Part shown: positions 9,681-36,509 of the stretch, piece after piece
How positions within the stretch are numbered: the first letter of the stretch is position 1
How the letters are laid out: every line of letters begins with the position of its first letter
Sequence record: PZ452579.1
Length of the DNA stretch: 64,000 bases
Direction: 5' to 3' (one strand)
Source: a phage
Program-made: the position numbers and the translations under genes
The notes under the pieces: generated by a model
What the model saw: only the letters and a program-made list of their open reading frames with translations
The model's database searches: none
Told to the model about the DNA's origin: nothing

Positions 9681-9708
9681 AATATTTTCCTCTCGTTAAG
9701 ATAGAAAG

Positions 9709-9738
9709 ATTATACTCCAACCATCCTTGGTTGTAAAC
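9709..9738 (-). promoter_or_regulatory. early promoter cassette (-35 GTTTAC, 18 nt, -10 TATAAT) with CCAAGGATGG dyad
   Basis: Read on minus strand upstream of 8730..9680. Confidence 0.55.
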
Positions 9739-9742
9739 TGAT

Positions 9743-10678
9743 TTATGATTTTAATGCATTCATTGCGTTAAAAAGTTTAGAGTACTGCAACTGGAGCTTG
9801 GTAACTACTTGTTGAGCATCACGAAGCTTAGCTTGTGCTTTGTCAAGTTCAACAGACAGTTGGTCCATAGTGGCCTTGATTTGATTATAATAGTAATCTT
9901 CAGCAGGAAGAAGACCGTTAGAGATTTCCAATTTAGTCGACGGTGAAGTGTATATAGATGGAGCAGTAGAATATGCACCTAGAACTTCAGCATTGCCAAT
10001 TGGGGTTGCAGTAATTGATGCTTCGAACGTTGCATTTTCCTTTTTAAGATTTTGATAGTATTCAGAGTCTTTGTGCCACCATGGCGCAGGAACCTTTTTA
10101 CCAATAGATACACGAGCCTGGATAGCGATATGGCCCTTATTCTTGATAGGGTCGATAATATTAAGCTCACGAGAATAAATTGCTTTAATCTGGTGGATAT
10201 TATCACCTAAAACTTCCAACGCTTGGTGGAATACACGAGCAACGTTATCATTCTTAGGTTTATACGTAAGAGTGAACTCGTTCTCACTGATAACCATGAT
10301 TTCTAACTTATCGTAAGTATATTTCAAATGTTTCATGTTAATTGCTTGAGGACGAATACGAGAAGCAATGGCCATCAGATTGTTAAGGTTATTTCTGAAC
10401 TGTTTAGCAAAATATTGTCCGTAACCGCCAATACAAAAATTACGAAGTTTCTGCTTGGCTAATAAACGGCTGAACTCACCATTTTTAATGAACTCTTTAA
10501 CGGGTGTGTTAGTAACGCATTCAAATTGAGTAAACTTACGAGAAGTAATCCCATAATATGAACAGATTTCCTCAATCTCTTCAGGAGTCTTTACAGGCAT
10601 ACGGATGGGATTAGGTCCTGGGGTATATGCATTCGAGGTAAATTCTTTGATAAGTTCTCTACGTGTAATAGAAGCCAT
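9743..10678 (-). CDS. paralog family B (311 aa), C-terminal coiled coil
   Basis: CIGGYGQYF... and AIASRIRPQAINMKHLKY segments align with family C; coiled-coil tail. Confidence 0.65.
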   Translation of the reverse strand: MASITRRELIKEFTSNAYTPGPNPIRMPVKTPEEIEEICSYYGITSRKFTQFECVTNTPVKEFIKNGEFSRLLAKQKLRNFCIGGYGQYFAKQFRNNLNNLMAIASRIRPQAINMKHLKYTYDKLEIMVISENEFTLTYKPKNDNVARVFHQALEVLGDNIHQIKAIYSRELNIIDPIKNKGHIAIQARVSIGKKVPAPWWHKDSEYYQNLKKENATFEASITATPIGNAEVLGAYSTAPSIYTSPSTKLEISNGLLPAEDYYYNQIKATMDQLSVELDKAQAKLRDAQQVVTKLQLQYSKLFNAMNALKS

Positions 10679-10704
10679 TTTATATTCCTCATGTTGAAAA
10701 ATTT

Positions 10705-10733
10705 ATTATACTACAACCATCCTTGGTTGTACA
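10705..10733 (-). promoter_or_regulatory. early promoter cassette (-35 TGTACA, 17 nt, -10 TATAAT)
   Basis: Minus strand; same CCAAGGATGG dyad core as at 9709. Confidence 0.5.
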
Positions 10734-11729
10734 TCATTCCTTAAGAAGTTTTACTACTTGAATAAGATTAGCTCGTTCTGTTTTATTTTTACCGTTTAAG
10801 CCTGCTAATCGTGAGATTTCATCGTCAGTCTGTTGAATAGTTACATTAAGTTCGTTAATCAAAGCTTCAAAGTATTTGATTTGCTCAGCATGTTTTGATT
10901 CAAATTTCTGAACCGGAATAACGTCTTGGTTCAGTTCATCAATAAGGTCTTTAAGAGCATCTTCTTGGTTGATATCATATTCAACTTCTTTTATTTCTTC
11001 AGCGAGCTCGTCTTTATATCTAACATCTTTTAGTCCTGGAGCTGGACCTAAAATCTCTTCTTTAAGAGTACAAACATATCCAATACGATATCCAATGCCG
11101 TCTCGCTTGATATCAACTTCGTCGATAAATCCACAATGTTTAAGCCCGGAGCCAATTAGGTCAAAATATCCTTGACGACGTCCTTCAAACGTTACACGAA
11201 CTACTAAGACGGTTTTGCCACCGACCTTTTGAAGCTCACATTTATAAAAGTCTGTTGAACCTGAATAACGTGGATGAGTTTTAAAGTTCATCTGACGATC
11301 TAGGCCCATTTGTAAGCGTGCTGATACGGCCAGAAAACGTGTTTGGTTCTCGTTAAGATGAGCAACAATCCATTTCAAAGGCATTTTACCATGTTCACGA
11401 CCGAACAAATCAGTACGTCCTAAATTACGCAGGATATTGTTAGAGTTAATCATCGACAGAACGTTAAGTTTATTCAGCGCGCTGAAGATTCCATCGGCCA
11501 TTGATTTTCCGTAACCTTTACATGCTTTAATAAGCGCTCGCGGTAGATTAGTATAGATTTCAGACGGCATATGAAAATCAAATTTACTAACCAGTAATTG
11601 ATGAACTTGGATAGCAATTTGTTCATAATTAAGTGCTCTGCGATCATTATGGTCTTTAAACCACACTTTAATCTGTGAAGCACATAAACCGTTAATTTCA
11701 TGTTTTACCGCATCAGATGTAATGCTCAT
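10734..11729 (-). CDS. paralog family C (331 aa), C-terminal coiled coil
   Basis: CKGYGKSMADG... and NNILRNLGRTDLFGREH motifs shared with A and B. Confidence 0.65.
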   Translation of the reverse strand: MSITSDAVKHEINGLCASQIKVWFKDHNDRRALNYEQIAIQVHQLLVSKFDFHMPSEIYTNLPRALIKACKGYGKSMADGIFSALNKLNVLSMINSNNILRNLGRTDLFGREHGKMPLKWIVAHLNENQTRFLAVSARLQMGLDRQMNFKTHPRYSGSTDFYKCELQKVGGKTVLVVRVTFEGRRQGYFDLIGSGLKHCGFIDEVDIKRDGIGYRIGYVCTLKEEILGPAPGLKDVRYKDELAEEIKEVEYDINQEDALKDLIDELNQDVIPVQKFESKHAEQIKYFEALINELNVTIQQTDDEISRLAGLNGKNKTERANLIQVVKLLKE

Positions 11730-11764
11730 AACTATTTCCTCAGATTGAATTGGAACTCAAAACC

Positions 11765-11790
11765 ATTATAACCCGTCCTTGGGTAAAGCG
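11765..11790 (-). promoter_or_regulatory. middle-promoter-like element (MotA-box-like CGCTTTA 13 nt upstream of TATAAT)
   Basis: Minus strand; TATAAT at 11765..11770, box at 11784..11790. Confidence 0.4.
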
Positions 11791-11791
11791 T

Positions 11792-12319
11792 TTATGCGTG
11801 AACCGTCTTTAAACGTTCTTCAAATTTCCGAAGAGTACTAATACGTTCTGCTTTCTGTTTTGTATAGTTTGCAATACGTTCTGAAGTGAGAGCGTATCGT
11901 TCGTTTACTGTTTCTTTCATGAAGTCAGGGATTTCACGAGAAGCTTTAATTTCATCAAACTTATCGAGTACTGCCTGGTCTTCAGCGATTAAATTTTCGT
12001 ACATCTCGATATCTTTCTTAATGAAGTCGATATCTTCCTGGGTTACTTTGGATAAACGAGATGCTTTATCCTTTTTGTACTGCTCGTTAGTTTCGCGAGA
12101 CCAGAATAACGTACGTTTTTTGTTAGTGTTTTTGTAGACTTCCACAATTCCAACTGAATCGATGATAACAATCCAATTCCAGCGAGATTTGAAAATCTGA
12201 CCTCCGTCCACGGTAATCTCGTTACCATAAGCAACGTCGTTAAAGAACTTGCTTTGTGCTTCAGATTTAAATTTACCGTCGTTATAATTTACCAGGTTGA
12301 AAATATCTTTAGCGTTCAT
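11792..12319 (-). CDS. hypothetical protein (175 aa)
   Basis: ORF with SD GGAGG; promoter cassette upstream. Confidence 0.6.
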   Translation of the reverse strand: MNAKDIFNLVNYNDGKFKSEAQSKFFNDVAYGNEITVDGGQIFKSRWNWIVIIDSVGIVEVYKNTNKKRTLFWSRETNEQYKKDKASRLSKVTQEDIDFIKKDIEMYENLIAEDQAVLDKFDEIKASREIPDFMKETVNERYALTSERIANYTKQKAERISTLRKFEERLKTVHA

Positions 12320-12346
12320 GTTTTACCTCCAGTAGTTGATAGGTCT

Positions 12347-12375
12347 ATAATAACATAACCATAGACCTTGTAAAC
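12347..12375 (-). promoter_or_regulatory. early promoter cassette (PeSL-like: -35 GTTTAC, 17 nt, -10 TATTAT in inverted repeat)
   Basis: AGGTCTAT/ATAGACCT dyad around -10; minus strand. Confidence 0.55.
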
Positions 12376-12377
12376 AA

Positions 12378-12665
12378 CTAAAAGAAACTTTTTTCGGTAT
12401 TTTTTCCACTGAACCAAACCGACTTCGGTATTTTCTGTAATTTTTCAGATTTAAGTTTCTCTTCCTGTTCTTTCTTATATACACCCTTGTCGTACTGGAG
12501 CATCTCTATGGCATTCTTTTGCAAACGATCTAAGGTAATTAAGGCTTTAGTTTTTCCTTTCAAGGAAGAGTCCTGGCGAACCTCCTCGCTATATTGCATC
12601 GTAGAACTAACCATACGATGAGCATAGAGTTCGACTGCGGCTTTAATTTTTTGCATAAAATCCAT
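12378..12665 (-). CDS. hypothetical protein (95 aa)
   Basis: ORF; overlaps out-of-frame 68-aa ORF 12560..12766. Confidence 0.4.
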   Translation of the reverse strand: MDFMQKIKAAVELYAHRMVSSTMQYSEEVRQDSSLKGKTKALITLDRLQKNAIEMLQYDKGVYKKEQEEKLKSEKLQKIPKSVWFSGKNTEKSFF

Positions 12666-12803
12666 AACATATCCTCTTTGATTTGTACATCATTATTTTT
12701 AAATATTTCTATGCCCTCAGTAGGTTCCTGGTGTCCTTCTTTGAGGTAAGCCATATGATTATTCATCTTTATGGCTTTTGTTACCTCAGAACTTCCTATA
12801 AGC

Positions 12804-12926
12804 TTATTTCAGTAAAGTAACTTCCGAGATTTCTTCCCAACCATCTTTATCAGTTGAAATAAAATCTGCTACATAAAGAGCCGTACGTAATGATACATTG
12901 CGAAGACGAGATACGTTAGCCTTCAT
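12804..12926 (-). CDS. possible 40-aa ORF coupled to ATPase stop (ATGA)
   Basis: MKANVSRLRNVSLRTALYVADFISTDKDGWEEISEVTLLK; below track threshold. Confidence 0.2.
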   Translation of the reverse strand: MKANVSRLRNVSLRTALYVADFISTDKDGWEEISEVTLLK

Positions 12927-13762
12927 CCAGGACAATGCTTTATACGTTTCTGCATCATGTCAGTAGATAATATTACATCTTCAACTCGAACCATAATCTC
13001 TTCATTAGAGTGTACTCCAAGGTCCAAATACACTGAACGAGATACTAAAGCTTGAAGGTGGGGAGCAAGTTTCGAACCGCGTTCTAACTCTTTATCGATA
13101 TCAACGTTTGTAATGAAAACAATAGTACCTTCAAACTCAAATTCTTTATCAATACCCTTATCATCGAGATAAGATGACGCAGTGCTCCAACAAACTTTGC
13201 GTTTATCTCCGGTATCTAATGCTGCTTTAAGAAGGTTCAAGATGTCCATATCTGAGAATACGTCAACGTCGTCGATTAAGAGAACGCTGTCTGCATCACG
13301 GTTGAGCCAAAGTTGTTCGTAAAGGCCAATACCAGAGATTTTACCATTAATACTTTTGTATTTGATGAAACCATTATCATTAGCATTATTAAGTGCTTTA
13401 TCCAGAGAATACGTCTTACCAATACCGGCTGCACCTGAAATAATGAGTGAACGAATTTTGCCATCGATAATACCATTCGTCATCATGTTCATTACTTTAA
13501 AGCGTTTGTTGATACGAGTTTTCATATCTTCAGTGCTTTCAACAACTGCAACTGGTGATGTCTCAACTCCTTCCATTACGATGTCTGATTTGAAGACCCA
13601 TACTCCACGTTCAGAACCATCAATCATAACGAAAATTTTACCGTCACCTAAGTGGGAACATTCAGGATTAAGCTTTGCCGGGAACCATGTCTTTGTGGCA
13701 ACATAAGAACCAGAGATTTCGTTATTACGATAGATACCTTTTTTGATTTGAACGTTGAACAT
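12923..13762 (-). CDS. P-loop NTPase (Walker A GAAGIGKT, Walker B VLLIDDVD)
   Basis: Start at ATG (MFNVQIKK...) after SD GGAG; ~110-aa N-terminal extension before P-loop. Confidence 0.65.
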   Translation of the reverse strand: MFNVQIKKGIYRNNEISGSYVATKTWFPAKLNPECSHLGDGKIFVMIDGSERGVWVFKSDIVMEGVETSPVAVVESTEDMKTRINKRFKVMNMMTNGIIDGKIRSLIISGAAGIGKTYSLDKALNNANDNGFIKYKSINGKISGIGLYEQLWLNRDADSVLLIDDVDVFSDMDILNLLKAALDTGDKRKVCWSTASSYLDDKGIDKEFEFEGTIVFITNVDIDKELERGSKLAPHLQALVSRSVYLDLGVHSNEEIMVRVEDVILSTDMMQKRIKHCPG

Positions 13763-13801
13763 TTTATTCTCCAAATTTACTCATTTCGTTTCGATAGGTC
13801 T

Positions 13802-13830
13802 ATAATAACATGTTTAAAGCAAAAGTAAAC
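13802..13830 (-). promoter_or_regulatory. early promoter cassette (PeSL-like)
   Basis: -35 GTTTAC, 17 nt, -10 TATTAT on minus strand; GATAGGTCTATAATAACAT core. Confidence 0.55.
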
Positions 13831-13832
13831 AA

Positions 13833-14051
13833 TTATTTGCGACGAGATTTTTTGGTAAGAGGTTGAAAGAACACTGCTTTACCAGCAGGAGTCAAAGTGA
13901 CTCGTAATGCATTACCGATTCCCAAGGATGCTTTAACAAGACCTTTAGATTTCAGTTCACCGAATGCTTGACGTTGGTCTGCATCACGAGTGTTAACCAT
14001 AAGACCTTTATCACCAGCTTCACGAATCATTTCTAACATTTTGGTTTTCAT
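13833..14051 (-). CDS. hypothetical small basic protein (72 aa)
   Basis: ORF flanked by promoter cassettes on both sides. Confidence 0.5.
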   Translation of the reverse strand: MKTKMLEMIREAGDKGLMVNTRDADQRQAFGELKSKGLVKASLGIGNALRVTLTPAGKAVFFQPLTKKSRRK

Positions 14052-14081
14052 TTTGTTTTCTCCTCTTGTTTTGATAGGTCT

Positions 14082-14110
14082 ATAATAACATATCCTAAAA
14101 GCATGTACAC
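14082..14110 (-). promoter_or_regulatory. early promoter cassette (PeSL-like)
   Basis: -35 GTGTAC, 17 nt, -10 TATTAT on minus strand. Confidence 0.5.
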
Positions 14111-14120
14111 TACTTTTTAA

Positions 14121-14156
14121 AAATATTTTGACCCCCTAAAGGGCCCGAAGGCCCTT
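14121..14156 (-). terminator. hairpin GGGCC-UUCG-GGCCC plus U-rich tail
   Basis: Directly after stop of 14158..15156; same hairpin recurs at 55610. Confidence 0.5.
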
Positions 14157-14157
14157 A

Positions 14158-15156
14158 TCATTTATAATACGAATTGTGGTTTTCTAAGTAGACTTGCTCA
14201 AGGAAATCATCCCAGAAACTCATATCTACTTTTTGTTGCATACCGTTCTTAGCGGCTTGTTCTGATGCTTGTTCAACTTGTTCAACTTGTTCAACGATAT
14301 CTTCTAGGAATTCTTGCACAGTTTTAAACGTATGTTTACCAAGCTTAACATCGAGAATAAATGGAGCATCCTGAAGTGGGTAAACCAGGTCGCCGGTTTT
14401 GTAAATTTCCAATAGTTGAAGTCCACCACGGCATGCATGACTCAATGCTTTCCAATCAATACCTTCATTGGCTTCTGCCTTACGAGCACGTTCACCGTAG
14501 TTCTCTTCAAGTTTAACCAGGATGGCATTGAACTCTTTGTTAGTTAACGTATCTTGGAATTTACGGTCCAACAGACTATAGAATGTTTGCTTACCTGTTT
14601 TCTCGTTTTCAGTTTCAACCCATGAAGCAAATTCACCTATAGGCAGAACATTCTTCATATGTGATAAACGAATTACTGCACCGTTATCAAAGTATTGTCC
14701 CCATTCATTAGAACGTTTAAGGGCTTGACGAAGAACAGCCAGTCGAGAACCCTTGACACCGTATTTAGAAGCTTGCTTACGGACATACCCTAAATAAGAT
14801 TTCATGTTAGTGGTATAGAAACGAGACCTGTTATCTTGAATATACTTCCATACATCAGGCAAATCAGATTTAACTACTAGACTTTGTGGAGTGTGAAGCA
14901 TATCTAATGCGACGGTTTCACCATCCGCAGCTAGTTTAAAGAAATATTTGAGACTATACAACTCATGGTCTACGTCGTCTTTTGTGTTCTTAGAAGATGT
15001 GTTATTCGTGTTCTTGCTCATGTGTTCTTTAACGTTACCGGTCAAGATATCACGAGCATGAGGGACATAAATTTCTTTAAAATCGACGTCAGATTCAGGA
15101 GTAGACGTTCCATAAAGGTGGCTACCAAAGTAGCCTTTCATAATTGTTTTCATCAT
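14158..15156 (-). CDS. nucleotidyltransferase-fold protein (Pol-beta superfamily motif GS-x9-SDVDF)
   Basis: N-terminal GYFGSHLYGTSTPESDVDF; 332 aa; ATG overlaps upstream stop (ATGA). Confidence 0.65.
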   Translation of the reverse strand: MMKTIMKGYFGSHLYGTSTPESDVDFKEIYVPHARDILTGNVKEHMSKNTNNTSSKNTKDDVDHELYSLKYFFKLAADGETVALDMLHTPQSLVVKSDLPDVWKYIQDNRSRFYTTNMKSYLGYVRKQASKYGVKGSRLAVLRQALKRSNEWGQYFDNGAVIRLSHMKNVLPIGEFASWVETENEKTGKQTFYSLLDRKFQDTLTNKEFNAILVKLEENYGERARKAEANEGIDWKALSHACRGGLQLLEIYKTGDLVYPLQDAPFILDVKLGKHTFKTVQEFLEDIVEQVEQVEQASEQAAKNGMQQKVDMSFWDDFLEQVYLENHNSYYK

Positions 15157-15626
15157 TTAGCCTTATATTCAATAACAGGACACACTTTAGCTTTACGAGC
15201 TTTTAAAAATTCAACGATAATCGATTTCTTGGGTTGAATAGGCTCAAGTCCATTTTTGATTCGTTCTTCGTTTTGTACAATGATCTCAATTTCTTTATTG
15301 AGCTTTCGGTCGTTATATTTGTCTAACAACCAGGAAGGACCAATTACCGCCCCGACAGCAATAAGAACCATTACTGATAATGTTAAAATGCCTATACCAA
15401 TTGAAGCCGGAACTAATGTCCATAGACTACTAAAGACAAAGAATTTAATTAAAATTTCTTGGCCAATGATTGCGGCACCTGCTAAAGTTGCAAATCCAAC
15501 AATTGAAACAGCTAATACCGGGAGAAACGTTTTCCAAAAATAAGCACACAACGTTTTCGGACGATTCCATGTACTATTGAACGCGGCATAAATTTTAAAG
15601 TGCCAAGAGTTTTCATTGATAATCAT
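15153..15626 (-). CDS. multi-pass membrane protein (157 aa)
   Basis: Two or three long hydrophobic segments; coupled to downstream NTase-fold gene. Confidence 0.6.
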   Translation of the reverse strand: MIINENSWHFKIYAAFNSTWNRPKTLCAYFWKTFLPVLAVSIVGFATLAGAAIIGQEILIKFFVFSSLWTLVPASIGIGILTLSVMVLIAVGAVIGPSWLLDKYNDRKLNKEIEIIVQNEERIKNGLEPIQPKKSIIVEFLKARKAKVCPVIEYKAK

Positions 15627-15635
15627 AATAATTCC

Positions 15636-16166
15636 TTATTTCAAAGTTGGGATAATAGAATCAAGATAAGCTTTAAGAGCAACTGCTTCATCTTTGTCTA
15701 ATGTAATGATATGTTGACGAAGGTCATCAATTTGGCGAATAACTACGACATCACCGTCTTCATAAGAAGGATTAACTCCCAGGACTGTTGTATAGTCAGG
15801 GCGGTCCTGATTTGTAATAAAAGCATTACGGCATTTAGCCCATTGAAGTTTGGCCTTTTTGGCTGTTTCAGATTCCATGAATTCTTTCACCTTAGCGACA
15901 AATGTTTTCCAATTATTAATAGAAAAACATTCATCTTCGGTTTCGATATTAACCCCACTATAAAGTCCGTGATAAAAACGAACTTGAAGGTCTTCATCAA
16001 TGTTAATTACAGATGCATGACCGGGTGGATTGAGTTTCAAAATCTTGTCTAGTTCCATAGGAAGAATAGTAACAACATCATCTTCTTGCGTCAGAACGTA
16101 CGCATAACCACGTTTTTCGATACATAAATCACCAAACAACTCAGTCGTTTCAATTACAGTTTTCAT
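15636..16166 (-). CDS. hypothetical protein (176 aa)
   Basis: Start at ATG (MKTVIETTELF...); track M1 is TTG. Confidence 0.55.
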   Translation of the reverse strand: MKTVIETTELFGDLCIEKRGYAYVLTQEDDVVTILPMELDKILKLNPPGHASVINIDEDLQVRFYHGLYSGVNIETEDECFSINNWKTFVAKVKEFMESETAKKAKLQWAKCRNAFITNQDRPDYTTVLGVNPSYEDGDVVVIRQIDDLRQHIITLDKDEAVALKAYLDSIIPTLK

Positions 16167-16278
16167 ATTATTCACCAATTAAAGTTTCAACAAAATTCAC
16201 CAAATCATTCTGACGAGCATCAATCTGATTTCTATAAAAATTAAATAAGATCCATCAATTTATTAGCTTGTTCACAGG

Positions 16279-16389
16279 TCATTTTACCATACTCGCTTCA
16301 ATAAGATTCATTACACCATTTACCATGTTATACGTAAACATCGGATAATTGTATTGTACTACAACATAAGCAATAAGCAAAAGTTTCAT
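16279..16389 (-). CDS. possible hydrophobic micropeptide (36 aa)
   Basis: MKLLLIAYVVVQYNYPMFTYNMVNGVMNLIEASMVK with SD GGAG; sits between a promoter cassette and the next gene. Confidence 0.25.
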   Translation of the reverse strand: MKLLLIAYVVVQYNYPMFTYNMVNGVMNLIEASMVK

Positions 16390-16417
16390 TTTGTTCTCCG
16401 TTTGTTTTGGTAGGACT

Positions 16418-16447
16418 ACTATAACATAGTCCTACCAAGATGTAAAC
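16418..16447 (-). promoter_or_regulatory. early promoter cassette (PeSL-like; perfect dyad GGTAGGACTA/TAGTCCTACC)
   Basis: -35 GTTTAC, 18 nt, -10 TATAGT on minus strand. Confidence 0.55.
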
Positions 16448-16656
16448 TACCGATTGTGTTTTAAATGTTGATAAAGTTCTTCAACTTGTTTAGGGTCCAA
16501 AACAATTAAGTCATTTTCTTGGCGAAGATAAATCCATCCCTTATCCCCAGGGCCATTTTTACAAAACATCACTGCCGCCATATCATCATCTTCAGCGCTT
16601 TCAGGTAAAAGTTCAAGTACACCGTCTTCAGATTTTCCAGTATAATCGTAAAGCAT
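16447..16656 (-). CDS. hypothetical acidic protein (69 aa)
   Basis: Start at ATG (MLYDYTGK...) 5 nt after SD GAGGA. Confidence 0.5.
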   Translation of the reverse strand: MLYDYTGKSEDGVLELLPESAEDDDMAAVMFCKNGPGDKGWIYLRQENDLIVLDPKQVEELYQHLKHNR

Positions 16657-16663
16657 AATATCC

Positions 16664-16843
16664 TCACATAATCTCGTTAACATACATTTGCAATTCAGTG
16701 TGCGTATCAGCCATCTTTTTCATTGCCTTATTGATATCGATATCACCGTCTTCACACCCGTGGGCATTTTCCCAATCGGATACAGCGTTAGCGTACTCTT
16801 CAATCAAAAACATTAACTTAGAAATTTTTTCTTTACGTGACAT
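16664..16843 (-). CDS. hypothetical protein (59 aa)
   Basis: Start at ATG (MSRKEKISKL...) after SD AGGAG. Confidence 0.5.
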   Translation of the reverse strand: MSRKEKISKLMFLIEEYANAVSDWENAHGCEDGDIDINKAMKKMADTHTELQMYVNEIM

Positions 16844-16870
16844 AACGTTCTCCTCTAGTAAGTAAGGTCT

Positions 16871-16899
16871 ACTATAACACAACCTGAGGAGAAGTAAAC
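16871..16899 (-). promoter_or_regulatory. early promoter cassette (PeSL-like)
   Basis: -35 GTTTAC, 17 nt, -10 TATAGT on minus strand. Confidence 0.5.
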
Positions 16900-16910
16900 T
16901 GCTAAATGCA

Positions 16911-16937
16911 AAAAAGCCCCAACCTTTCGGAAGGGGC
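16911..16937 (-). terminator. rho-independent terminator GCCCCUUCC-GAAA-GGUUGGGGC + U5
   Basis: GNRA-loop hairpin plus T-tract after 16943..17500; identical 27-mer at 17534 and 33433. Confidence 0.6.
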
Positions 16938-16942
16938 TTTGA

Positions 16943-17500
16943 TTAGTTTTTGTAATATCGTAAAGGGTTGATATGGAATGAAAGCATTGCGCGTGGAATA
17001 GGACGACTCAAAAGACTCTTAAGTTTCCAACCACAGTAAACACGCAGATAAAATGTAATACCACCAACCTTAAGATAAGGTATAGCAGCGAATAATCCCC
17101 ATGCAGACTCGTTCCAAACTAAAAGATATCCATGATGTGCCGGATCAGGAGATCCAGATTTAGTTTCGGCGTTGCCTTTATAGTGCCATTCTGATGAAGC
17201 TTCGCGACCTAAAACATGATACGAAAAATTATATGCTTTGTTGCGCCATAGCCAAGCTACGCGTTGAGCATATTTACCTATAACAGGAATTTTACGTATT
17301 TTAGACCAACGTTCAACATGGCCGTGGTCACCATCGATAGGATTATCGTAAGTCATCATCCAGTCAAAGCCATAAGGTAGTTTACCGGTTTTTTCACTAT
17401 GGAATGGAACTACAAATGGTGCTAGAATAATTGCTAAAATCGCTGCGATCCAATCTATAGGAACAAGAACAACCCAACTTATGTATTTTAAAAATTTCAT
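16943..17500 (-). CDS. membrane-anchored protein (185 aa), rI.-1 position
   Basis: N-terminal TM (WVVLVPIDWIAAILAIILAPFVV); late promoter immediately upstream. Confidence 0.6.
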   Translation of the reverse strand: MKFLKYISWVVLVPIDWIAAILAIILAPFVVPFHSEKTGKLPYGFDWMMTYDNPIDGDHGHVERWSKIRKIPVIGKYAQRVAWLWRNKAYNFSYHVLGREASSEWHYKGNAETKSGSPDPAHHGYLLVWNESAWGLFAAIPYLKVGGITFYLRVYCGWKLKSLLSRPIPRAMLSFHINPLRYYKN

Positions 17501-17524
17501 ATATCCTCTCTTAGTTTACAAGGA

Positions 17525-17532
17525 TATTTATA
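17525..17532 (-). promoter_or_regulatory. T4-type late promoter TATAAATA
   Basis: Minus-strand TATAAATA 25 nt upstream of 17500 start. Confidence 0.55.
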
Positions 17533-17533
17533 C

Positions 17534-17560
17534 AAAAAGCCCCAACCTTTCGGAAGGGGC
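17534..17560 (-). terminator. rho-independent terminator (identical 27-mer)
   Basis: AAAAAGCCCCAACCTTTCGGAAGGGGC on plus strand; after rI. Confidence 0.6.
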
Positions 17561-17567
17561 AGGTAAA

Positions 17568-17870: not shown

Positions 17871-17882
17871 ATAGGCCTCCTG

Positions 17883-18095: not shown

Positions 18096-18122
18096 ATATA
18101 CCTCTTGGTTAGATATTAGTAT

Positions 18123-27480: not shown

Positions 27481-27508
27481 AATATTCTCCTCATGTTTTA
27501 ATAGGACT

Positions 27509-27538: not shown

Positions 27539-27550
27539 AGTTTTGCGAAA

Positions 27551-28507: not shown

Positions 28508-28535
28508 AATATTTTCCTCGGATTAATTCATTAAC

Positions 28536-28775
28536 TTAAATTTCACGACATGCGATATTATATTCATCCCAGAGGTCATCATGTGAAGCCTCTACCAATG
28601 GAACGATTGTACCGTTTATGTCTTCATTATAAGGGCAAATTGTACAGTGCGCATCTTCGAATCGGATGCCTTTGTGTTCAGATTTTTTATAACGCATATC
28701 GAATATCTTTGCAAACTTTTCACGAGTAATGGTTTTAGCAACCACTTCGGTTCCAATACTTTCGTAATAAATCAT
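28536..28775 (-). CDS. hypothetical protein (79 aa)
   Basis: Start at ATG (MIYYESIG...) after SD GGAG. Confidence 0.5.
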   Translation of the reverse strand: MIYYESIGTEVVAKTITREKFAKIFDMRYKKSEHKGIRFEDAHCTICPYNEDINGTIVPLVEASHDDLWDEYNIACREI

Positions 28776-28803
28776 TGTGGACTCCATTTAATTTGATAGG
28801 ACT

Positions 28804-28833
28804 ACTATAACATAGCCCTATCTTGTTGTAAAC
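28804..28833 (-). promoter_or_regulatory. early promoter cassette (PeSL-like)
   Basis: -35 GTTTAC, 18 nt, -10 TATAGT on minus strand. Confidence 0.55.
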
Positions 28834-28837
28834 TGTT

Positions 28838-29035
28838 TTAGCAAGAATAACTAGATGATACCCAGCCTTGAACAGTAATACTATTATTTGATAACGAGAT
28901 TGCGTCCTGGAGATTCAGACCTGCGTTATCTTCAATCCATAATGTAACTTCTTCGCGTTCTTCTGTTGCAATTTGGAACAGGTTTTCCAGAGCAGCTACT
29001 GCCGTACGTACAGCACAATCTAATTCACGAGACAT
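28838..29035 (-). CDS. Cys-tail family member 1 (65 aa; ends GWVSSSYSC)
   Basis: Shares C-terminal motif with the next two genes. Confidence 0.55.
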   Translation of the reverse strand: MSRELDCAVRTAVAALENLFQIATEEREEVTLWIEDNAGLNLQDAISLSNNSITVQGWVSSSYSC

Positions 29036-29044
29036 ATGGTTTCC

Positions 29045-29317
29045 TTAGCAAGTGTGAGAAGATGCAACCCAACCGCCATCTTCAAGGCTCAAGTTGTAGT
29101 CGTATTGGTAAACGTCAGCCCATTCAGCATAGCCGTTTTTTGTACAACGTTCAAGATCGGCTTTAAGATGTCCGGGTGAATGATAGGTTCCACCCATACC
29201 ATAAGCTGGATACAAGTCGAATGTTGTGTTTTGTTTATCAGCAATTTCTTTGGCGGCCTCAATAGCTGCATAGATTTTTGCTACAGCTTCAGCCAGTTCG
29301 GTTTGTTCTTTAGACAT
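29045..29317 (-). CDS. Cys-tail family member 2 (90 aa; ends GGWVASSHTC)
   Basis: Shared IADxQ...YG-G-TY and C-terminal tail with 29327..29632. Confidence 0.6.
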   Translation of the reverse strand: MSKEQTELAEAVAKIYAAIEAAKEIADKQNTTFDLYPAYGMGGTYHSPGHLKADLERCTKNGYAEWADVYQYDYNLSLEDGGWVASSHTC

Positions 29318-29326
29318 AATAATTCC

Positions 29327-29632
29327 TTAGCACAACGCAGAAGACGAAACCCAAGCACCTTCAGTAATAACGTAACCATTACCTTCACGCTTAACATCGC
29401 CACCATTATTTTCAATTTCATCTTTCATCCACTGGGATACGATTTCACCCTTAGGATAATAAGTACGACCGCTACCATAATCACCTACAGAAAATGATAC
29501 GGCATATTGGTCTGCGATCTTTGTTGCTTCTTCTTCGATACGTTCAGCTTGATTCAGAAGTTTATAAATTGCATCTGAAGCGGATTTGGCATCATTAAAC
29601 TCTGGCACTTTAATTTCAATAATCTTACTCAT
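29327..29632 (-). CDS. Cys-tail family member 3 (101 aa; ends GAWVSSSALC)
   Basis: Paralog of 29045..29317. Confidence 0.6.
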   Translation of the reverse strand: MSKIIEIKVPEFNDAKSASDAIYKLLNQAERIEEEATKIADQYAVSFSVGDYGSGRTYYPKGEIVSQWMKDEIENNGGDVKREGNGYVITEGAWVSSSALC

Positions 29633-29730
29633 TTTCTACATTCCTTAATAAAGTTTTCGATTGTTTCATTTTCACGTTTAGCTAGGAGTTCATTATAACT
29701 AATCATTTGAGAAGCGTAAACAGCATAAAT

Positions 29731-30123
29731 TCAGTTCAGGCTTTTGCATCTTATCTCCTTAACGAATTCCATGGCTTCGTCATATTCATACTTTTTAACA
29801 GCTTCATCATACTGAGCTTGGGCTTTTGCACATTGAATTTTCCATTCGCGTACTCGAGCTCTATAATGACGTCCTTGGTACCAATATCCCACCCAATTAA
29901 TAGGCATTAATAAAAATGGCACAATAAACGACCCGGCTATAATAAGTAAAAACACTGCATCAGACGATATAACTTCACTAGAATCTAAAACAGCTCCTAT
30001 AATCATAAGGATTAAAAATGCTAAAGCTAAAATAGGGCCAAATAGTACTTCGTTTGGGATTAATTTACGTTTGTATTCGTATGCCCAGGGCTTAATTGGC
30101 ATGTACAGGGTTGGCTTTGACAT
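29731..30123 (-). CDS. membrane protein (2 TM)
   Basis: Start at ATG (MSKPTLYMPIK...); hydrophobic segments. Confidence 0.5.
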   Translation of the reverse strand: MSKPTLYMPIKPWAYEYKRKLIPNEVLFGPILALAFLILMIIGAVLDSSEVISSDAVFLLIIAGSFIVPFLLMPINWVGYWYQGRHYRARVREWKIQCAKAQAQYDEAVKKYEYDEAMEFVKEIRCKSLN

Positions 30124-30743: not shown

Positions 30744-31337
30744 TTATTTCAAAGAGTTAATATATTCTTGTACATCAGCAGAAGTGGTTTCGACACCGGC
30801 TGGAGTGCCATTGAACGTTTCAACACGAGTCAGAGTGTCTTCGATATCAACCTTAGTCAGTGCAGCGATTTCAATTACATCATCAGCCGTAGAGATACCA
30901 AGGGCATTGGCTGCTCGAGTTTCACGAATGTATTCGAGTTTGATTGCCAGGTTCTGACGAGCATCGTCAAGTTCAACCACCTTACGAGCAATTTCAATTC
31001 GCATAGCGGCATACCCGTCAGCTTTTGTATTAAGTTGTTCGGCAGTTCGACGATACAGAAGACCAAGCTTAGCATGCATGGTAACATCTTGTCCTTCGGC
31101 CAGGAGCTTACGAATTTCACGTTCCTTAGAAGCGGCTTGCTTGTTCTTTTCATTAACAAGTTCGCGAATACGTTTTTCTTCATTAATAGATTTAACAGAA
31201 GCCGTTTTTAGTTCTTTGATTTGGGTAATCAACTTATCTGCAGCTGCGTTATACTGTTCTTCGACAGTCAGATTTTTAGCCATAGCAGTACCCAGTTTAG
31301 TGCGGATGAATTCAACAAGTTTCTTCAGTGTGTTCAT
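30744..31337 (-). CDS. coiled-coil protein (197 aa)
   Basis: Start at ATG ([10 protein letters not shown]...); track M1 is TTG; long helical heptad-like sequence. Confidence 0.55.
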
Positions 31338-31378
31338 ATTATTACCTTTCAATTGGTGGTTTATTATCCAACGAGAGC

Positions 31379-31407
31379 ATTATACTCTGCTCTCAAGAGT
31401 TTGTAAA
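31379..31407 (-). promoter_or_regulatory. sigma70-type early promoter (-35 TTTACA, 17 nt, -10 TATAAT) with -10 inside inverted repeat GAGAGC/GCTCTC
   Basis: Copy of the 1830 cassette with compensatory base change in the stem. Confidence 0.55.
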
Positions 31408-31635
31408 TTATTTTTTAATCAAATTGACATAAAACTTGGCGTCTTCGGGGTGCATGCCTTCGCAGTATTCTTCAACCATGAACTTCTTAATAGCTTCATA
31501 AGGACCACTCAGATTAAGCTCAGTTGTCCAGAACTTGGAATCTTGGGCTGAATCGATACGAACTTCAGGGTGGCGGTTGCGAATAACTTCTTCAGTGTAT
31601 TCATAATCAACGACATCAATACTAACTTTAGCCAT
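31408..31635 (-). CDS. hypothetical acidic protein (75 aa)
   Basis: ORF. Confidence 0.5.
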   Translation of the reverse strand: MAKVSIDVVDYEYTEEVIRNRHPEVRIDSAQDSKFWTTELNLSGPYEAIKKFMVEEYCEGMHPEDAKFYVNLIKK

Positions 31636-31663
31636 TTTGTTTTCCTCTTGATTTGATGTGATT

Positions 31664-31692
31664 ACTATAACATAAACTTACTTAGATGTAAA
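31664..31692 (-). promoter_or_regulatory. early promoter cassette (-35 TTTACA, 17 nt, -10 TATAGT)
   Basis: Minus strand upstream of 31408..31635. Confidence 0.5.
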
Positions 31693-31844
31693 TTATTTCA
31701 ACGTCACCTTTAGCTGCTTTATAACCTTCAGCCCAAGATACAACAGAGTTTTTATCTGAGGATTCAAATTCAGGCATTGGACTTTCACCAATATTCACAC
31801 AATATGTTTCTTCATTTTCATCGAACCAAATAATTAAAGTAGTC
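31682..31844 (-). CDS. possible small protein (about 54 aa)
   Basis: MTTLIIWFDENEETYCVNIGESPMPEF... with SD AGGAG; below track threshold. Confidence 0.35.
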
Positions 31845-31876
31845 ATTTTGTTTACTCCTCTGTAGTTGATAAGTCT

Positions 31877-31905
31877 ATAGTATCACCATCCTTGGTGCTT
31901 GTACA
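31877..31905 (-). promoter_or_regulatory. early promoter cassette (-35 TGTACA; CCAAGGATGG-type core)
   Basis: Minus strand. Confidence 0.45.
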
Positions 31906-31914
31906 TCATTATTT

Positions 31915-32277: not shown

Positions 32278-32553
32278 TTATTTCATATTATCGAAATATT
32301 CTTCAGCGATTTCGTCATTATCATGGTAAACTTTAGAAGACAGTTTAACATAACCTTCTGCGGTGAACATATTAATCACAACCTTTATAGTATACCACTG
32401 TCCGTCTTCATTACCCATTACTGCGTAAGTTTCAAACATCGGATGGTCAGGTCCAATAACTTTAATATCATTCACCGTACGACCAAAATCTTCTGGAACG
32501 CATTTCATAAAGAAGTTGAACAGTTCACCGTAATTATCCATTTCATTCTCCAA
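32278..32553 (-). CDS. hypothetical acidic protein (91 aa)
   Basis: ORF. Confidence 0.5.
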   Translation of the reverse strand: MENEMDNYGELFNFFMKCVPEDFGRTVNDIKVIGPDHPMFETYAVMGNEDGQWYTIKVVINMFTAEGYVKLSSKVYHDNDEIAEEYFDNMK

Positions 32554-32583
32554 GTTTTTTCTGTATCGGTAGTTGATAGTTGT

Positions 32584-32613
32584 ATAGTACCACGGAAGAA
32601 CAGGGATGTAAAC
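32584..32613 (-). promoter_or_regulatory. early promoter cassette (PeSL-like)
   Basis: -35 GTTTAC, 18 nt, -10 TACTAT on minus strand. Confidence 0.5.
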
Positions 32614-32721: not shown

Positions 32722-32769
32722 GAGGCCCGGAAAGGCCTAGATACCAAAAAGCCCTATCATTTAGATAGG
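32722..32769 (-). terminator. tandem hairpins (CCCUAUC-n5-GAUAGGG + U-tract; AGGCC-n6-GGCCU)
   Basis: Immediately after stop of 32779..33342. Confidence 0.55.
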
Positions 32770-32778
32770 GATTTAAAA

Positions 32779-33342
32779 TTATTTACCTAGTTTAGTTATT
32801 ATAGCTTCGGCAGCAGCTTTTAGCTTAGATGCAGTGTTAATACGATTTTTAATTTCAGTATACGCATCGCCAAGAACATCAAGGCTATCAGAATAAACAC
32901 TTACACTATTGCGTTCGCTATTTGAAATAGAACCTTTAGTTTTACGATCAAAATCAGTGTACACGTCTTGAAGATCACGGGCTGCCTTCTTTGCATCATC
33001 CAATGCATCAAGAGCTTTATTCAAAGCATTGACATATTTTTTAGTGTCAAACATATTCTTAGAAATTTTAACAGGTGCACGTTCAGGAGTAGCTAAGGCG
33101 GATTTAGGAACCTGCGTGCCAGATGCCAGTTTCTTAGAAATTTTGAAAAACGCTTTATTGAAACTATTTTCTTGTCTCATCGTAAAAGAACTAGTATCGA
33201 TGTTATACATTTCAATAGCTTTAGCTTTCCACTTAAGAAAATCGCCGCGGTCTTTTGGATCCAAGTGGAAGAATACTTTAGTAAGATCTGCTTCAGATGG
33301 TAATTTTGCTGCTTCGGTTAAAAATTCGGCATAGGTTTTCAT
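32779..33342 (-). CDS. internal-protein-like (187 aa), leader MKTYAEFLTE
   Basis: Leader matches T4 IP consensus; Lys/Ala-rich helical body. Confidence 0.7.
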   Translation of the reverse strand: MKTYAEFLTEAAKLPSEADLTKVFFHLDPKDRGDFLKWKAKAIEMYNIDTSSFTMRQENSFNKAFFKISKKLASGTQVPKSALATPERAPVKISKNMFDTKKYVNALNKALDALDDAKKAARDLQDVYTDFDRKTKGSISNSERNSVSVYSDSLDVLGDAYTEIKNRINTASKLKAAAEAIITKLGK

Positions 33343-33432: not shown

Positions 33433-33459
33433 AAAAAGCCCCAACCTTTCGGAAGGGGC
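33433..33459 (-). terminator. rho-independent terminator (identical 27-mer)
   Basis: Third copy of AAAAAGCCCCAACCTTTCGGAAGGGGC. Confidence 0.6.
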
Positions 33460-33771
33460 TAAGCCTTGCGGCAACCTTGTCGGGGTTCCACCTGCTAAGG
33501 CAAGTGTTTGTACGAAACGCCGGGATTCGAACCCGGTTATTAAGTAGTTGACGCTACTCAATATTTTTAAAAGGCCATATCTCGACCATATCCGAACGTT
33601 CCGTCAAAAACGCTACTCGGCTTACGGCAAAGATATTTCCTCGAATCGATAATTCTGTGCGCCGTTTCTGCTGTGATGTAATGGGATATTAACAAATCGT
33701 AAAGATTTATTAAGACCAGTCCTTACTCAGGGAACATCAGTCCGACGACTTACCGGTAGCGACCCGGCTTC
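33460..33771 (-). ncRNA. candidate small stable RNA with tRNA-like T-arm
   Basis: No credible ORF; CCGGG-TTCGAAT-CCCGG T-arm-like element at 33516..33536 (minus sense); no canonical cloverleaf found. Confidence 0.25.
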
Positions 33772-34134: not shown

Positions 34135-34211
<77 letters not shown>

Positions 34212-34217
34212 AATATA

Positions 34218-34291
34218 TGACCCAGACCAGATTCGAACTGGTAACCTTTCCCTTATGAGGGGACTGCTGCTAACCATTGAGCTACAGGGCC
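34218..34291 (-). tRNA. tRNA with CAU anticodon (Ile2-like or Met)
   Basis: 5' end and T-arm resemble E. coli tRNA-Ile2; anticodon loop CTCATAA; imperfect acceptor and D stems. Confidence 0.55.
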
Positions 34292-35540: not shown

Positions 35541-35747
35541 TTACTCACCTTTTGCAATTTTATCCATAACAATAGCGATTAAACCGATTAGAAATGCTAC
35601 TACCAATGAGATAGAATTTTCTGTTGTTGTCAGTAGTCCACAAATGAATCCTACAAACATCGAAAAACTAAAAGCCATTGAAGCAATTACTACAGCAACA
35701 TTACGAATCAGTTCAGCGCGTTTCATTTTATTTCTCCATTTACTCAT
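35541..35747 (-). CDS. small membrane protein (68 aa)
   Basis: Two hydrophobic segments. Confidence 0.5.
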   Translation of the reverse strand: MSKWRNKMKRAELIRNVAVVIASMAFSFSMFVGFICGLLTTTENSISLVVAFLIGLIAIVMDKIAKGE

Positions 35748-35762
35748 TTGTTTTGATAGGAC

Positions 35763-35791
35763 TACTATAACATATCCATATAGGCTTGTAT
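35763..35791 (-). promoter_or_regulatory. early promoter cassette (PeSL-like)
   Basis: -35 TATACA, 17 nt, -10 TATAGT on minus strand. Confidence 0.5.
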
Positions 35792-35795
35792 ACCT

Positions 35796-36059
35796 TTATT
35801 TCAAATATATTGCGTATTTTTTATAGCCACCAGGCTCGTGTCGAAGACCTTTATCATTCGCAAAACGTTGAATGTTATTGAACTGATTTTCATCAAGTTC
35901 GGATGTGTCAAATATAAAAAAGTTTCGTTTGTTACCAAGCGTGATATGCGGAGTTAAGTCAATGTTATACAAATTAAGAATATCAGCAATAACCTGATTG
36001 ACTGCTTTGTTAATTTTCACACCAGACGATTCTGAGATGAATTCGTTGAAAGTTTTCAT
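35796..36059 (-). CDS. internal-protein-like, leader MKTFNEFISE
   Basis: Start at second ATG; leader is a variant of IP consensus. Confidence 0.6.
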   Translation of the reverse strand: MKTFNEFISESSGVKINKAVNQVIADILNLYNIDLTPHITLGNKRNFFIFDTSELDENQFNNIQRFANDKGLRHEPGGYKKYAIYLK

Positions 36060-36091
36060 TTTAGGTTCCATTTGGTTGTTTTGATAGGACT

Positions 36092-36121
36092 ACTATAACA
36101 TAGTCCTACCATGATGTAAAC
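36092..36121 (-). promoter_or_regulatory. early promoter cassette (PeSL-like)
   Basis: -35 GTTTAC, 18 nt, -10 TATAGT; dyad TAGGACTA/TAGTCCTA. Confidence 0.55.
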
Positions 36122-36432
36122 TATTTTATGCCTTTAGATGAAATAGTATTCTGGCGTTTGACCCCAGTTTGTGAAAAATCATGGTTATCAATTTGGTCAA
36201 CTCGCATAACACCAAACGCAGATTTAATTTTGGCCTTTGAACCTTTTTTGATACTAATTACCATATAAGTATCATTTTTCTTATATTCGAAATTTGATAC
36301 TTCAACGCCTTGATTAGAAATTGACTTAATAATAGCATTAGCGTATTCATCATCTAACGGGCCGTTAGTGTTAATAACAAAATTTTTATCCGCTTTAGTA
36401 GCTTCCGCGATGAATTCTTGATAGGTTTTCAT
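36121..36432 (-). CDS. internal-protein-like (ipI position), leader MKTYQEFIAE
   Basis: Exact T4 IP leader; 103 aa; adjacent to 57B as ipI is in T4. Confidence 0.7.
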   Translation of the reverse strand: MKTYQEFIAEATKADKNFVINTNGPLDDEYANAIIKSISNQGVEVSNFEYKKNDTYMVISIKKGSKAKIKSAFGVMRVDQIDNHDFSQTGVKRQNTISSKGIK

Positions 36433-36466
36433 TTTATTTCCTTGAGGTTGTTTATTTGATAGGATG

Positions 36467-36496
36467 ATAGTAACACACCATCATCCTTATGTAAAC
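36467..36496 (-). promoter_or_regulatory. early promoter cassette (PeSL-like)
   Basis: -35 GTTTAC, 18 nt, -10 TACTAT; dyad AGGATGATAG. Confidence 0.5.
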
Positions 36497-36509
36497 TGTT
36501 TTGTGAAAA

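Follow-up and report, generated by a model that had tools for sequence, protein, structure and literature searches.

Probable promoter–stem-loop cassettes of the T4 type in the accessory-gene region of an RB69-like phage

Introduction

What is the short repeat that recurs between the accessory genes of the phage sequence record PZ452579.1, and what could it do there? We analysed one strand of 64,000 nucleotides from this record (the window, meaning that whole stretch), in which an initial annotation had noticed a repeated element of about 40 nt resembling an early promoter combined with an inverted repeat. Bases 9700–29700 of the window match RB69 and other Mosigvirus coliphages (about 96 per cent identity over 94–97 per cent of the length). 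We consider it likely that the repeats are early-promoter/stem-loop (PeSL) cassettes of the T4 type, that is, early promoters whose hairpins would form in read-through RNA and whose repeated sequence would serve as a substrate for recombination.

A one-stranded family of putative early-type promoters

The plus-strand motif first proposed for the element, TTTTGATAGGWCTA, occurs twelve times at two mismatches or fewer, against 1.75 expected, and none of 100 shuffles reached twelve. A repeat search returned families of 5–11 copies of 43–67 nt each. We took the copy count from an nhmmer profile made from the copies, accepting matches at E ≤ 0.0017. There were twenty-five such matches, every one on the minus strand, between 1817 and 36513. 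The best plus-strand match in the whole window reached only E = 0.51, and the profile search found no cassettes in the late-gene half (40.6–64 kb). Twenty of the twenty-five lie within 9700–36513, in agreement with the twenty or so copies originally counted between 9700 and 36500. In relatives, a 49-kb locus contains twenty-one to twenty-two copies, which all share the strand of the genes.

The minus-strand promoter described for the element was recovered in all twenty-five copies: a GTTTAC-like −35, 17–18 nt, and a TAnnnT −10. TGn precedes the −10 in most of them, and taking TTTACA as the −35 hexamer gives a canonical spacer of 16–17 nt. Anchored at the −10 (set off by spaces), the consensus reads aaA..gtTTaca...TGt TATaaT a..cctaTcaaa. 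Conservation extends beyond the hexamers to a segment around the expected start site, CCTATCAAA, which is also present in T4-like relatives. The upstream stop codon lies 0–14 nt from the −35 in 19/25 copies, and the end of the −10 lies 26–42 nt from the ATG in 22/25, with Shine–Dalgarno sequences (SDs) of the GGAG or GAGG type. The module thus runs, over about 60–70 bp, from an upstream stop codon through GTTTAC, 17–18 nt, TGn-TAnnnT, and a CTATCAA start region to the SD and ATG.

On this layout, host sigma70 RNA polymerase would start transcription at the cassettes as soon as infection begins and read leftward through the accessory genes. Each leader would continue past the start region as an A-rich stretch, followed by a GGAG-type SD and the ATG. 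The cassettes had been said to precede nearly every accessory gene; with twenty of them for about fifty-seven credible genes in the range, that statement proved too broad, and there would be roughly one promoter per three genes.

The copies are listed below, each named by its higher end coordinate (e.g. 20966 for 20907–20966), with −35, spacer length, and −10 given in order and predicted folding free energies (dG) in kcal/mol.

1790–1859, minus: cassette 1859; GTATAC-18-TATAAT, SD, ATG; weak 6-bp hairpin GAGAGA/TCTCTC at 1845–1824
2096–2159, minus: cassette 2159; ATGTAC-18-TATTAT; 13-bp hairpin at 2152–2119, dG −16
3227–3287, minus: cassette 3287; GTTTAC-17-TAAGAT; hairpin at 3280–3238, outer stem CCTC/GAGG over the SD
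7293–7374, minus: cassette-like promoter 7374; GTTTAC-18-TATGAT; within coding sequence; no hairpin
8698–8758, minus: cassette 8758; GTTTAC-18-TATAAT; no hairpin; overlaps the end of the upstream open reading frame
9678–9738, minus: cassette 9738; GTTTAC-18-TATAAT; before the nrdC.3 homologue; small spacer-only hairpin AACCA-AGGA-TGGTT
10676–10734, minus: cassette 10734; ATGTAC-18-TATAAT; nrdC.5 homologue; spacer-internal hairpin as in 9738
12317–12375, minus: cassette 12375; GTTTAC-17-TATTAT; nrdC.8; hairpin AGGTCTAT/ATAGACCT at 12368–12341, dG −12.4
13760–13830, minus: cassette 13830; GTTTAC-17-TATTAT; nrdC.10; 3' arm retained, 5' arm missing; partner in a cassette-to-cassette indel
14049–14110, minus: cassette 14110; GTGTAC-17-TATTAT; degenerate hairpin; partner in the 13821/14056 indel
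16387–16447, minus: cassette 16447; GTTTAC-18-TATAGT; tk.1-like; 13-bp hairpin TTGGTAGGACTA/TAGTCCTACCAA at 16438–16407, dG −19.7
16841–16899, minus: cassette 16899; GTTTAC-17-TATAGT; mobD.2a; spacer TTCTCCTC complementary to the SD GAGGAGAA; true terminator directly upstream
20907–20966, minus: cassette 20966; regB; GTTTAC-17-TATTAT; spacer TTCTCC..TAGTTG pairs with CAACTA..GGAGAA (SD)
23720–23783, minus: cassette 23783; GTTTAC-18-TATAAT; before an internal-protein gene; no stable hairpin
24465–24524, minus: cassette 24524; denV; GTTTAC-18-TACTAT; 10-bp anti-SD stem TTCCTCCAAG/CTTGGAGGAA, dG −18.2
27478–27538, minus: cassette 27538; GTTTAC-18-TATAGT; hairpin ATAGGATTA/TAGTCCTAT, one G·U
28773–28833, minus: cassette 28833; GTTTAC-18-TATAGT; hairpin GATAGGGCTA/TAGTCCTATC, one G·U, dG −14.5
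29630–29721, minus: promoter-like site 29721; GTTTAC-18-TATAAT; inside e.3 in RB69
31335–31408, minus: cassette 31408; ATTTAC-18-TATAAT; e.6; hairpin GAGAGC/GCTCTC
31633–31693, minus: cassette 31693; ATTTAC-18-TATAGT; frd.3; no hairpin; partner in the 182-bp indel
31844–31906, minus: cassette 31906; ATGTAC-18-TACTAT; spacer-internal hairpin CACCA-AGGA-TGGTG; partner in the 182-bp indel
32539–32613, minus: cassette 32613; GTTTAC-18-TACTAT; e.8; weak long-range pairing only
35724–35793, minus: cassette 35793; GTATAC-18-TATAGT; tRNA.4; 5' arm degenerate; bounds the ipI-locus replacements and the 8.2-kb deletion
36057–36121, minus: cassette 36121; GTTTAC-18-TATAGT; before an internal-protein gene; hairpin TGGTAGGACTA/TAGTCCTATCA, dG −16.1
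36430–36496, minus: cassette 36496; GTTTAC-18-TACTAT; before an internal-protein gene; hairpin AGGATGAT/ATCATCCT, dG −14.4

A partial cassette was also seen on the minus strand at 916–943, consisting of TATAATAGACCTATGAA with a complementary AGATAGGTCTCTA upstream but lacking any −35 that we could recognise; it may be a decayed cassette or one of the 'half' PeSLs reported by Comeau et al. (2014).

Hairpins and cognate-specific pairing

RNAfold predicts a stable hairpin (dG −9.9 to −19.7 kcal/mol, 10–17 bp) in twelve of the twenty-five cassettes, ten of which are among the twenty in the range first described: 2159, 3287, 12375, 16447, 16899, 20966, 24524, 27538, 28833, 31408, 36121, and 36496. 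The spacer holds the 5' arm, and the 3' arm either starts in the final bases of the −10 and extends into the start region or lies over the SD. The inverted repeat with varying, complementary arms that had been ascribed to the element is therefore real and specific to each copy in these twelve, but it is not universal, and one copy (1859) has just a weak version. The sequence CCAAGGATGG, previously taken for an arm spanning the −10, instead forms a small hairpin wholly within the spacer in 9738, 10734, and 31906. The corresponding spacer motif, (A/C)ACCAAGGATGGT(G/T), occurs at 9714–9738, 10710–10734, and 31882–31906 and again near position 1607 of a T4-like locus (L012); it is conserved as sequence and not merely as pairing. 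A separate stem upstream of the promoter was found for 16899 only, and loosely for 14110 and 32613.

Copies of a shared consensus might look self-complementary without any selection for pairing. To tell these apart, we computed duplexes of each spacer with the downstream segment of its own copy and of every other copy, and compared the two by permutation. Within the window, cognate duplexes averaged −9.35 kcal/mol and non-cognate ones −6.20 kcal/mol (p = 5e-5). We then widened the set to four 49-kb Mosigvirus loci and sixteen IMG/VR loci centred on regB homologues, which after removal of near-duplicates gave fifty-nine cassettes from five lineages of T4-like phages. The difference persisted (−9.93 versus −6.15 kcal/mol, p ≤ 2e-5): 44 per cent of cognate pairs reached −12 kcal/mol or lower, against 5.4 per cent of non-cognate pairs, and the cognate partner was the single best in 21/59 cassettes.

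An alignment of all copies, proposed earlier as a way to score covariation, gave a signal in the same direction with a small excess. In the commonest register of the ungapped alignment, 54.2 per cent of positions were paired, against 51.1 ± 1.1 per cent in shuffles (3/500 reached the observed value) and 28–43 per cent when the arms were slid. The fixed-register signal is smaller because at least three registers are in use among the copies, many of which are stemless. At least ten unrelated arm pairs are in use, including TAGGACTA/TAGTCCTA, AGGTCTAT/ATAGACCT, AGGATGAT/ATCATCCT, and AGGGTTAT/ATAACCCT, as well as GAGAGC/GCTCTC, GGGCCAT/ATGGCCC, and TGGAGCT/AGCTCCA. The stems of the paralogous cassettes 1859 (GAGAGA/TCTCTC) and 31408 (GAGAGC/GCTCTC) show one compensated pair change.

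With the start site assumed to lie 7 nt past the −10, all 12 stable hairpins have the predicted start within the 3' arm or 1 nt after it. RNA from a cassette's own promoter would thus lack the 5' arm, and folding would be possible only in read-through RNA. The hairpin would accordingly act at cistron boundaries, on transcripts arriving from upstream, where it could attenuate or pause transcription or protect the 3' end of the upstream message.

Predicted Shine–Dalgarno pairing at regB and three other genes

In four cassettes, 3287 (gene 3047–3229), 16899 (mobD.2a), 20966 (regB), and 24524 (denV), the −35-proximal arm (TTCTCC.. or TTCCTCCAAG) is an anti-SD predicted to pair with the SD of the cassette's own gene. 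The predicted probability that this SD is unpaired is 0.00–0.20 in read-through RNA, against 0.49–0.82 in the cassette's own transcript. Both arms of the denV hairpin are identical in T4-like loci. The regB stem is found across several groups of phages, in the following forms.

The window: TTCTCCAGTAGTTG / CAACTAGAGGAGAA; 12/14 pairs, with a 2-nt internal mismatch
Other Mosigvirus: TTCTCCTCTAGTTG / CAACTAGAGGAGAA; 14 bp
T4-like (vB_EcoM_G8 group): TTTTCCTCTTGACTG / CAGTTAAGAGGAGAA; 15 bp, two of them G·U
Salmonella STML-198 group: TTTCTCCTCTTTATG / CATAAAGAGGAGAAA; 15 bp
Citrobacter CF1 group: TCTCCTGTAAG(T) / (A)CTTACAGGAGA; 11–12 bp
Klebsiella KPV15 group: shorter anti-SD with an inner GGGCCAT / ATGGCCC stem; weaker

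MAFFT mis-registers the regB stems, undoing N-padding as well, and for this reason we registered the alignment by hand and counted pairs with our own script. Among ten sequences, 77 per cent of cells are paired, against 45–55 per cent when slid and 69.9 ± 2.0 per cent when shuffled (0/1000 reach the observed value), in an alignment registered to the structure and so favouring it. Both sides have changed in 6/16 pairs. Judged from these alignments, the predicted regB hairpin is conserved with compensatory changes in RB69-like, T4-like, STML-198-like, and CF1-like phages and is shorter in KPV15-like ones.

These four stem-loops might be not terminators but anti-SDs placed in the spacer of the gene's own early promoter, leaving only the immediate-early transcript translatable. 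From the predicted structures we regard this as possible, though we lean slightly against it. The ribosome-binding site would be masked by pairing in read-through RNA, including, for regB, the GGAG that RegB cuts, and the transcript started inside the hairpin would be the sole translatable form for regB, denV, mobD.2a, and gene 3047–3229. Their proteins would then be confined to the first minutes of infection.

According to a review of T4 (Uzan and Miller 2010, PMC3014915), regB has 'a typical early promoter', RegB cleaves the SD of its own message, and RNA can be shielded from RegB by its structure. The only SD-sequestering hairpins named there are the late-promoter cases e, soc, 49, and I-TevI. 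There, as in the regB, denV, mobD.2a, and 3287 cassettes, a long transcript pairs its ribosome-binding site and the RNA from an internal promoter cannot fold. The difference lies in the promoter: in e, soc, 49, and I-TevI an internal late promoter (TATAAATA) delays translation, whereas the early GTTTAC-17-TAnnnT found here would restrict it to the immediate-early transcript. If true, such control would mirror that of T4 lysozyme, where the promoter in the hairpin is a late one. The regB hairpin is a concrete example on which to test how T4-like phages might limit a toxic nuclease to immediate-early expression. We found no mention of the regB stem in the literature covered, to which the 2004 regB comparison (Piesiniene et al.) does not belong.

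Cassettes at recombination junctions

We aligned the window with seven relatives by BLAST and chained the alignments, which gave twenty-seven distinct indel or replacement events with forty-five ends. Eight ends fall inside cassettes (1.8 expected, p = 4e-4), and 15/45 lie within 30 nt of one (3.5 expected, p = 8e-7). Counted by event, eleven of the twenty-seven have an end within 30 nt of a cassette and sixteen do not, and the earlier statement that the cassettes delimit the variable blocks applies to the first group alone. As direct repeats with 25–50 nt of near identity, cassettes could allow homologous recombination to delete, insert, or swap the genes between them.

Stronger than these counts, though qualitative, is the evidence of four clean cassette-to-cassette joins, marked by junction overlaps of 30–48 nt or by chimeric cassettes; two chimeras could be read directly. 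In ESh27 (L003), gene 31682–31846 is missing through a 182-bp indel between cassettes 31693 and 31906; as far as the SD the remaining chimera follows the upstream copy, and beyond it the downstream copy, placing the crossover in the SD/leader. In a near-identical genome (IMGVR_UViG_2706795553_000001, L005), 8.2 kb are missing between 27527 and 35749 (e.3–e.8, the tRNAs, and tRNA.2–.4). Its junction cassette (near position 3091) matches 35793 upstream of the spacer and 27538 downstream, with the crossover in the hairpin/−10 segment. This gap may be a natural deletion or an assembly collapse at a 34-nt repeat. Gene 13833–14051 is missing in p000y (L004) and in L007, with a 48-nt junction overlap (the 13821/14056 indel); a seed search for the chimera in p000y did not find it, and the event rests on the BLAST overlap only. 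At 27538, p000y carries an additional gene and cassette.

Replacements in the two internal-protein clusters end 20–28 nt into genes, at 23694, 36033, and 36410. These ends lie in an N-terminal coding repeat (MKTYQEF...), so the homology block there comprises the cassette plus the signal. Seven small minus-strand genes start with MKTY(Q/K/S/A)EF(I/L).E, the remainder of each protein being unrelated to the others; we take this N-terminus to be the capsid-targeting sequence of T4 internal proteins.

23053–23382, minus: MKTY-start gene
23408–23722, minus: MKTY-start gene
23787–24047, minus: MKTY-start gene
24526–24807, minus: MKTY-start gene
32779–33342, minus: MKTY-start gene
35796–36059, minus: MKTY-start gene
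36121–36432, minus: MKTY-start gene

Two more events use a repeated terminator as junction homology. The 28-nt repeat (AAAAAGCCCCAACCTTTCGGAAGGGGCT on the plus strand) is present in three copies of 96–100 per cent identity, with a diverged fourth member.

16911–16938, minus: intrinsic terminator copy 1, GCCCC..GGGGC + TTTTTT; one flank of a 594-bp gene insertion
17534–17561, minus: intrinsic terminator copy 2; other flank of the 594-bp insertion, 29-nt junction overlap
33433–33460, minus: intrinsic terminator copy 3; at another indel junction, 27-nt overlap
32746–32773, minus: diverged terminator of the same repeat family, 71 per cent identical, stem + TTTTT; about 130 nt upstream of cassette 32613

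The inserted gene between the first two copies (16943–17500, 185 amino acids, hydrophobic N-terminus) is missing in RB69 and five other relatives. Judging by these junctions, terminators, besides promoters, seem to serve as recombination homology.

Site 29721 was considered as a cassette-mediated event and rejected, since the site lies inside e.3 in RB69 and a 250-bp deletion in the window ends at its −35. Relative to RB69, ST2, ESh27, and p000y, this deletion truncates the e.3 homologue (29690–29775, minus strand) and leaves a 16-codon remnant open reading frame fused to the promoter-like site.

Competing explanations

Arbiol et al. (2010, PMC2839356) proposed that such stem-loops are terminators or attenuators, halting RNA polymerase that has come from cassettes upstream. 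When they placed RB49 PeSL211/210 between a strong promoter and lacZ, expression fell about as much as with rrnB T1, and the hairpins in our window begin about 15–30 nt past the upstream stop codon, where a terminator would be expected. However, none of the twelve stable hairpins is followed by a U-tract (0–4 T in the next 8 nt, with A-rich tails such as CAAAACAA), a terminator scan flagged none of the cassette hairpins, and the SD-pairing class would have the entire −10 and start region as its loop, which is not the geometry of a terminator. The same region contains the true GCCCC..GGGGC + TTTTT(T) terminators listed above, which suggests that the phage uses canonical ones where it terminates. 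Given the missing U-tracts and these textbook examples nearby, canonical termination by the cassette hairpins is unlikely, and so, in our judgement, is the proposal as a whole; the hairpins may pause or attenuate transcription. Less probable still is that the inverted repeats have no function and are a by-product of a partly palindromic promoter consensus or of common descent. TAGG (in the spacer) and CCTA (after the −10) do both belong to the family consensus, cassettes 13830, 14110, and 35793 have a 3' arm without a 5' arm, and the commonest register exceeds a column-preserving shuffle by just 3 percentage points. Common sequence would not readily account for the ten or more unrelated arm pairs, the better pairing of cognate partners (p ≤ 2e-5), the compensated pair between 1859 and 31408, or the two-sided changes in the regB stem.

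The palindromes could instead act as DNA, with cruciforms or single-strand hairpins tuning promoter opening or marking sites for recombination (endonuclease VII, gp46/47). The crossover in the L005 chimera does lie within the hairpin and −10 segment, and the commonest hairpin has the −10 in its loop. In that segment, however, the two copies also share their longest run of identity, and the ESh27 crossover lies outside the hairpin. Moreover, a duplex cruciform predicts no asymmetry between strands, whereas across the fifty-nine cassettes the sense strand folds more stably than its complement (−14.97 versus −13.53 kcal/mol, Wilcoxon p = 0.016), and helices with at least nine Watson–Crick pairs contain thirty-two G·U against twelve A·C (a hand count over non-independent copies). 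We therefore consider action as DNA to be very unlikely. The asymmetry is moderate evidence that the hairpin would act as an RNA-level structure on the transcribed sense.

Several results weigh against our main interpretation, PeSL cassettes with hairpins in read-through RNA. The role of the hairpin is inferred, as are promoter activity and start sites, the latter two from the consensus only; our literature search found no start-site mapping for T4 or RB69. A generic sigma70 scan of the AT-rich window does not discriminate (sixty-eight sites, sixty-four expected), which made the profile search necessary. About nine or ten of the twenty-five copies have no convincing RNAfold hairpin, so the hairpin appears dispensable for promoter function. 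Across the family, anti-SD complementarity is found in 7/25 cassettes and in 24 per cent of random 18-mers, a non-significant difference, and in read-through RNA the SDs of cassette genes are as accessible as those of non-cassette genes (0.376 versus 0.373); SD masking was therefore dropped as a general explanation. Over all helices of at least six pairs, G·U and A·C number fifty-five and forty-six (p = 0.43), with no significant skew, and the hand registration of the regB alignment belongs among these points too. Finally, 9/25 of the ends near gene junctions are at cassette-bearing junctions, which make up 26 per cent of all junctions (p = 0.19), so we make no claim that cassettes are preferred over other junctions. 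The gene-shuffling role proposed for the cassettes does have direct support in relatives, whose chimeric copies sit exactly where a gene or the 8.2-kb block is missing, but enrichment over gene junctions is not seen.

Relation to known promoter cassettes

PeSLs are defined by an upstream stop codon just before the −35, sigma70-type boxes, a stem-loop between the boxes or overlapping the −10, an SD, and a start codon, and they repeat in hyperplastic regions (Arbiol et al. 2010, PMC2839356). The initial annotation had matched the element to these cassettes, and the sequence features of the definition are indeed present. The AT-rich upstream tract is weakly so: AT content in the 25 nt upstream of the −35 is 67.8 per cent, a slight enrichment over the 63.2 per cent background. 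As in RB49 and phi1 (PMC2839356), the modules have a fixed internal order, all point the same way along the hyperplastic region, and border small accessory genes; deletion of a gene between two of them leaves a chimeric copy behind. The RB49 PeSLs have near-perfect TTGACA/TATAAT boxes and polyG/polyC stems, whereas the copies here have GTTTAC(A), usually TGn, and stems of mixed sequence, 10–15 bp long. Unlike those of RB49 and phi1, about 40 per cent of our copies are stemless, and there are no terminator tails. The RB49/phi1 class also includes in vivo promoter, attenuator, and mini-circle properties.

The T4 and PST PeSLs are closer, with a TTTACW-N17-TAYWAT promoter and an AGNA...TCNT stem (Comeau et al. 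2014, PMC4122927). Both fit our commonest copies (TAGGACTA...TAGTCCTA), and the T4-like loci in our set carry the same cassettes. In that study's figure legend the stems sit immediately before the promoter, whereas ours, like those of the T4-like loci in our set, extend across the −10 or as far as the SD. T4 early promoters (Hinton 2010, PMC2988021) likewise have a GTTTAC −35, a TGn −10, and extra conserved positions, and precede immediate-early genes such as regB. They were treated purely as promoters, and complementarity between a spacer and its cognate downstream segment falls outside that description.

This comparison supports identifying the cassettes as PeSLs, a kind of element already described in T4-like phages and found here in an RB69-like genome. 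A full-text search on PeSLs in T4-type phages returned nothing on the RB69 group. Our results extend the picture to that group with statistics that the original papers lacked, namely the cognate test and a breakpoint test against two nulls. They also qualify it: stems occur in about half of the cassettes, do not resemble intrinsic terminators, and would be formable only in read-through RNA. For phage annotation and engineering, the cassettes would mark the starts of transcription units and natural cut-and-paste junctions of accessory genes.

Gene setting of the window

With annotation transferred from RB69, the accessory region that holds the cassettes reads nrdC - tk - vs - regB - denV - e - tRNA - ipI - 57B. 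Minus-strand transcription extends to about 40.6 kb, beyond which lie plus-strand late structural genes. An Rfam search of the window returned two tRNAs only and no family matching the cassettes. The tRNA genes, Arg-TCT and Met-CAT (34135–34291, minus strand), equal in number those of RB69. The same spot holds ten in p000y and three in ST2, and the tRNA block is itself a variable cassette.

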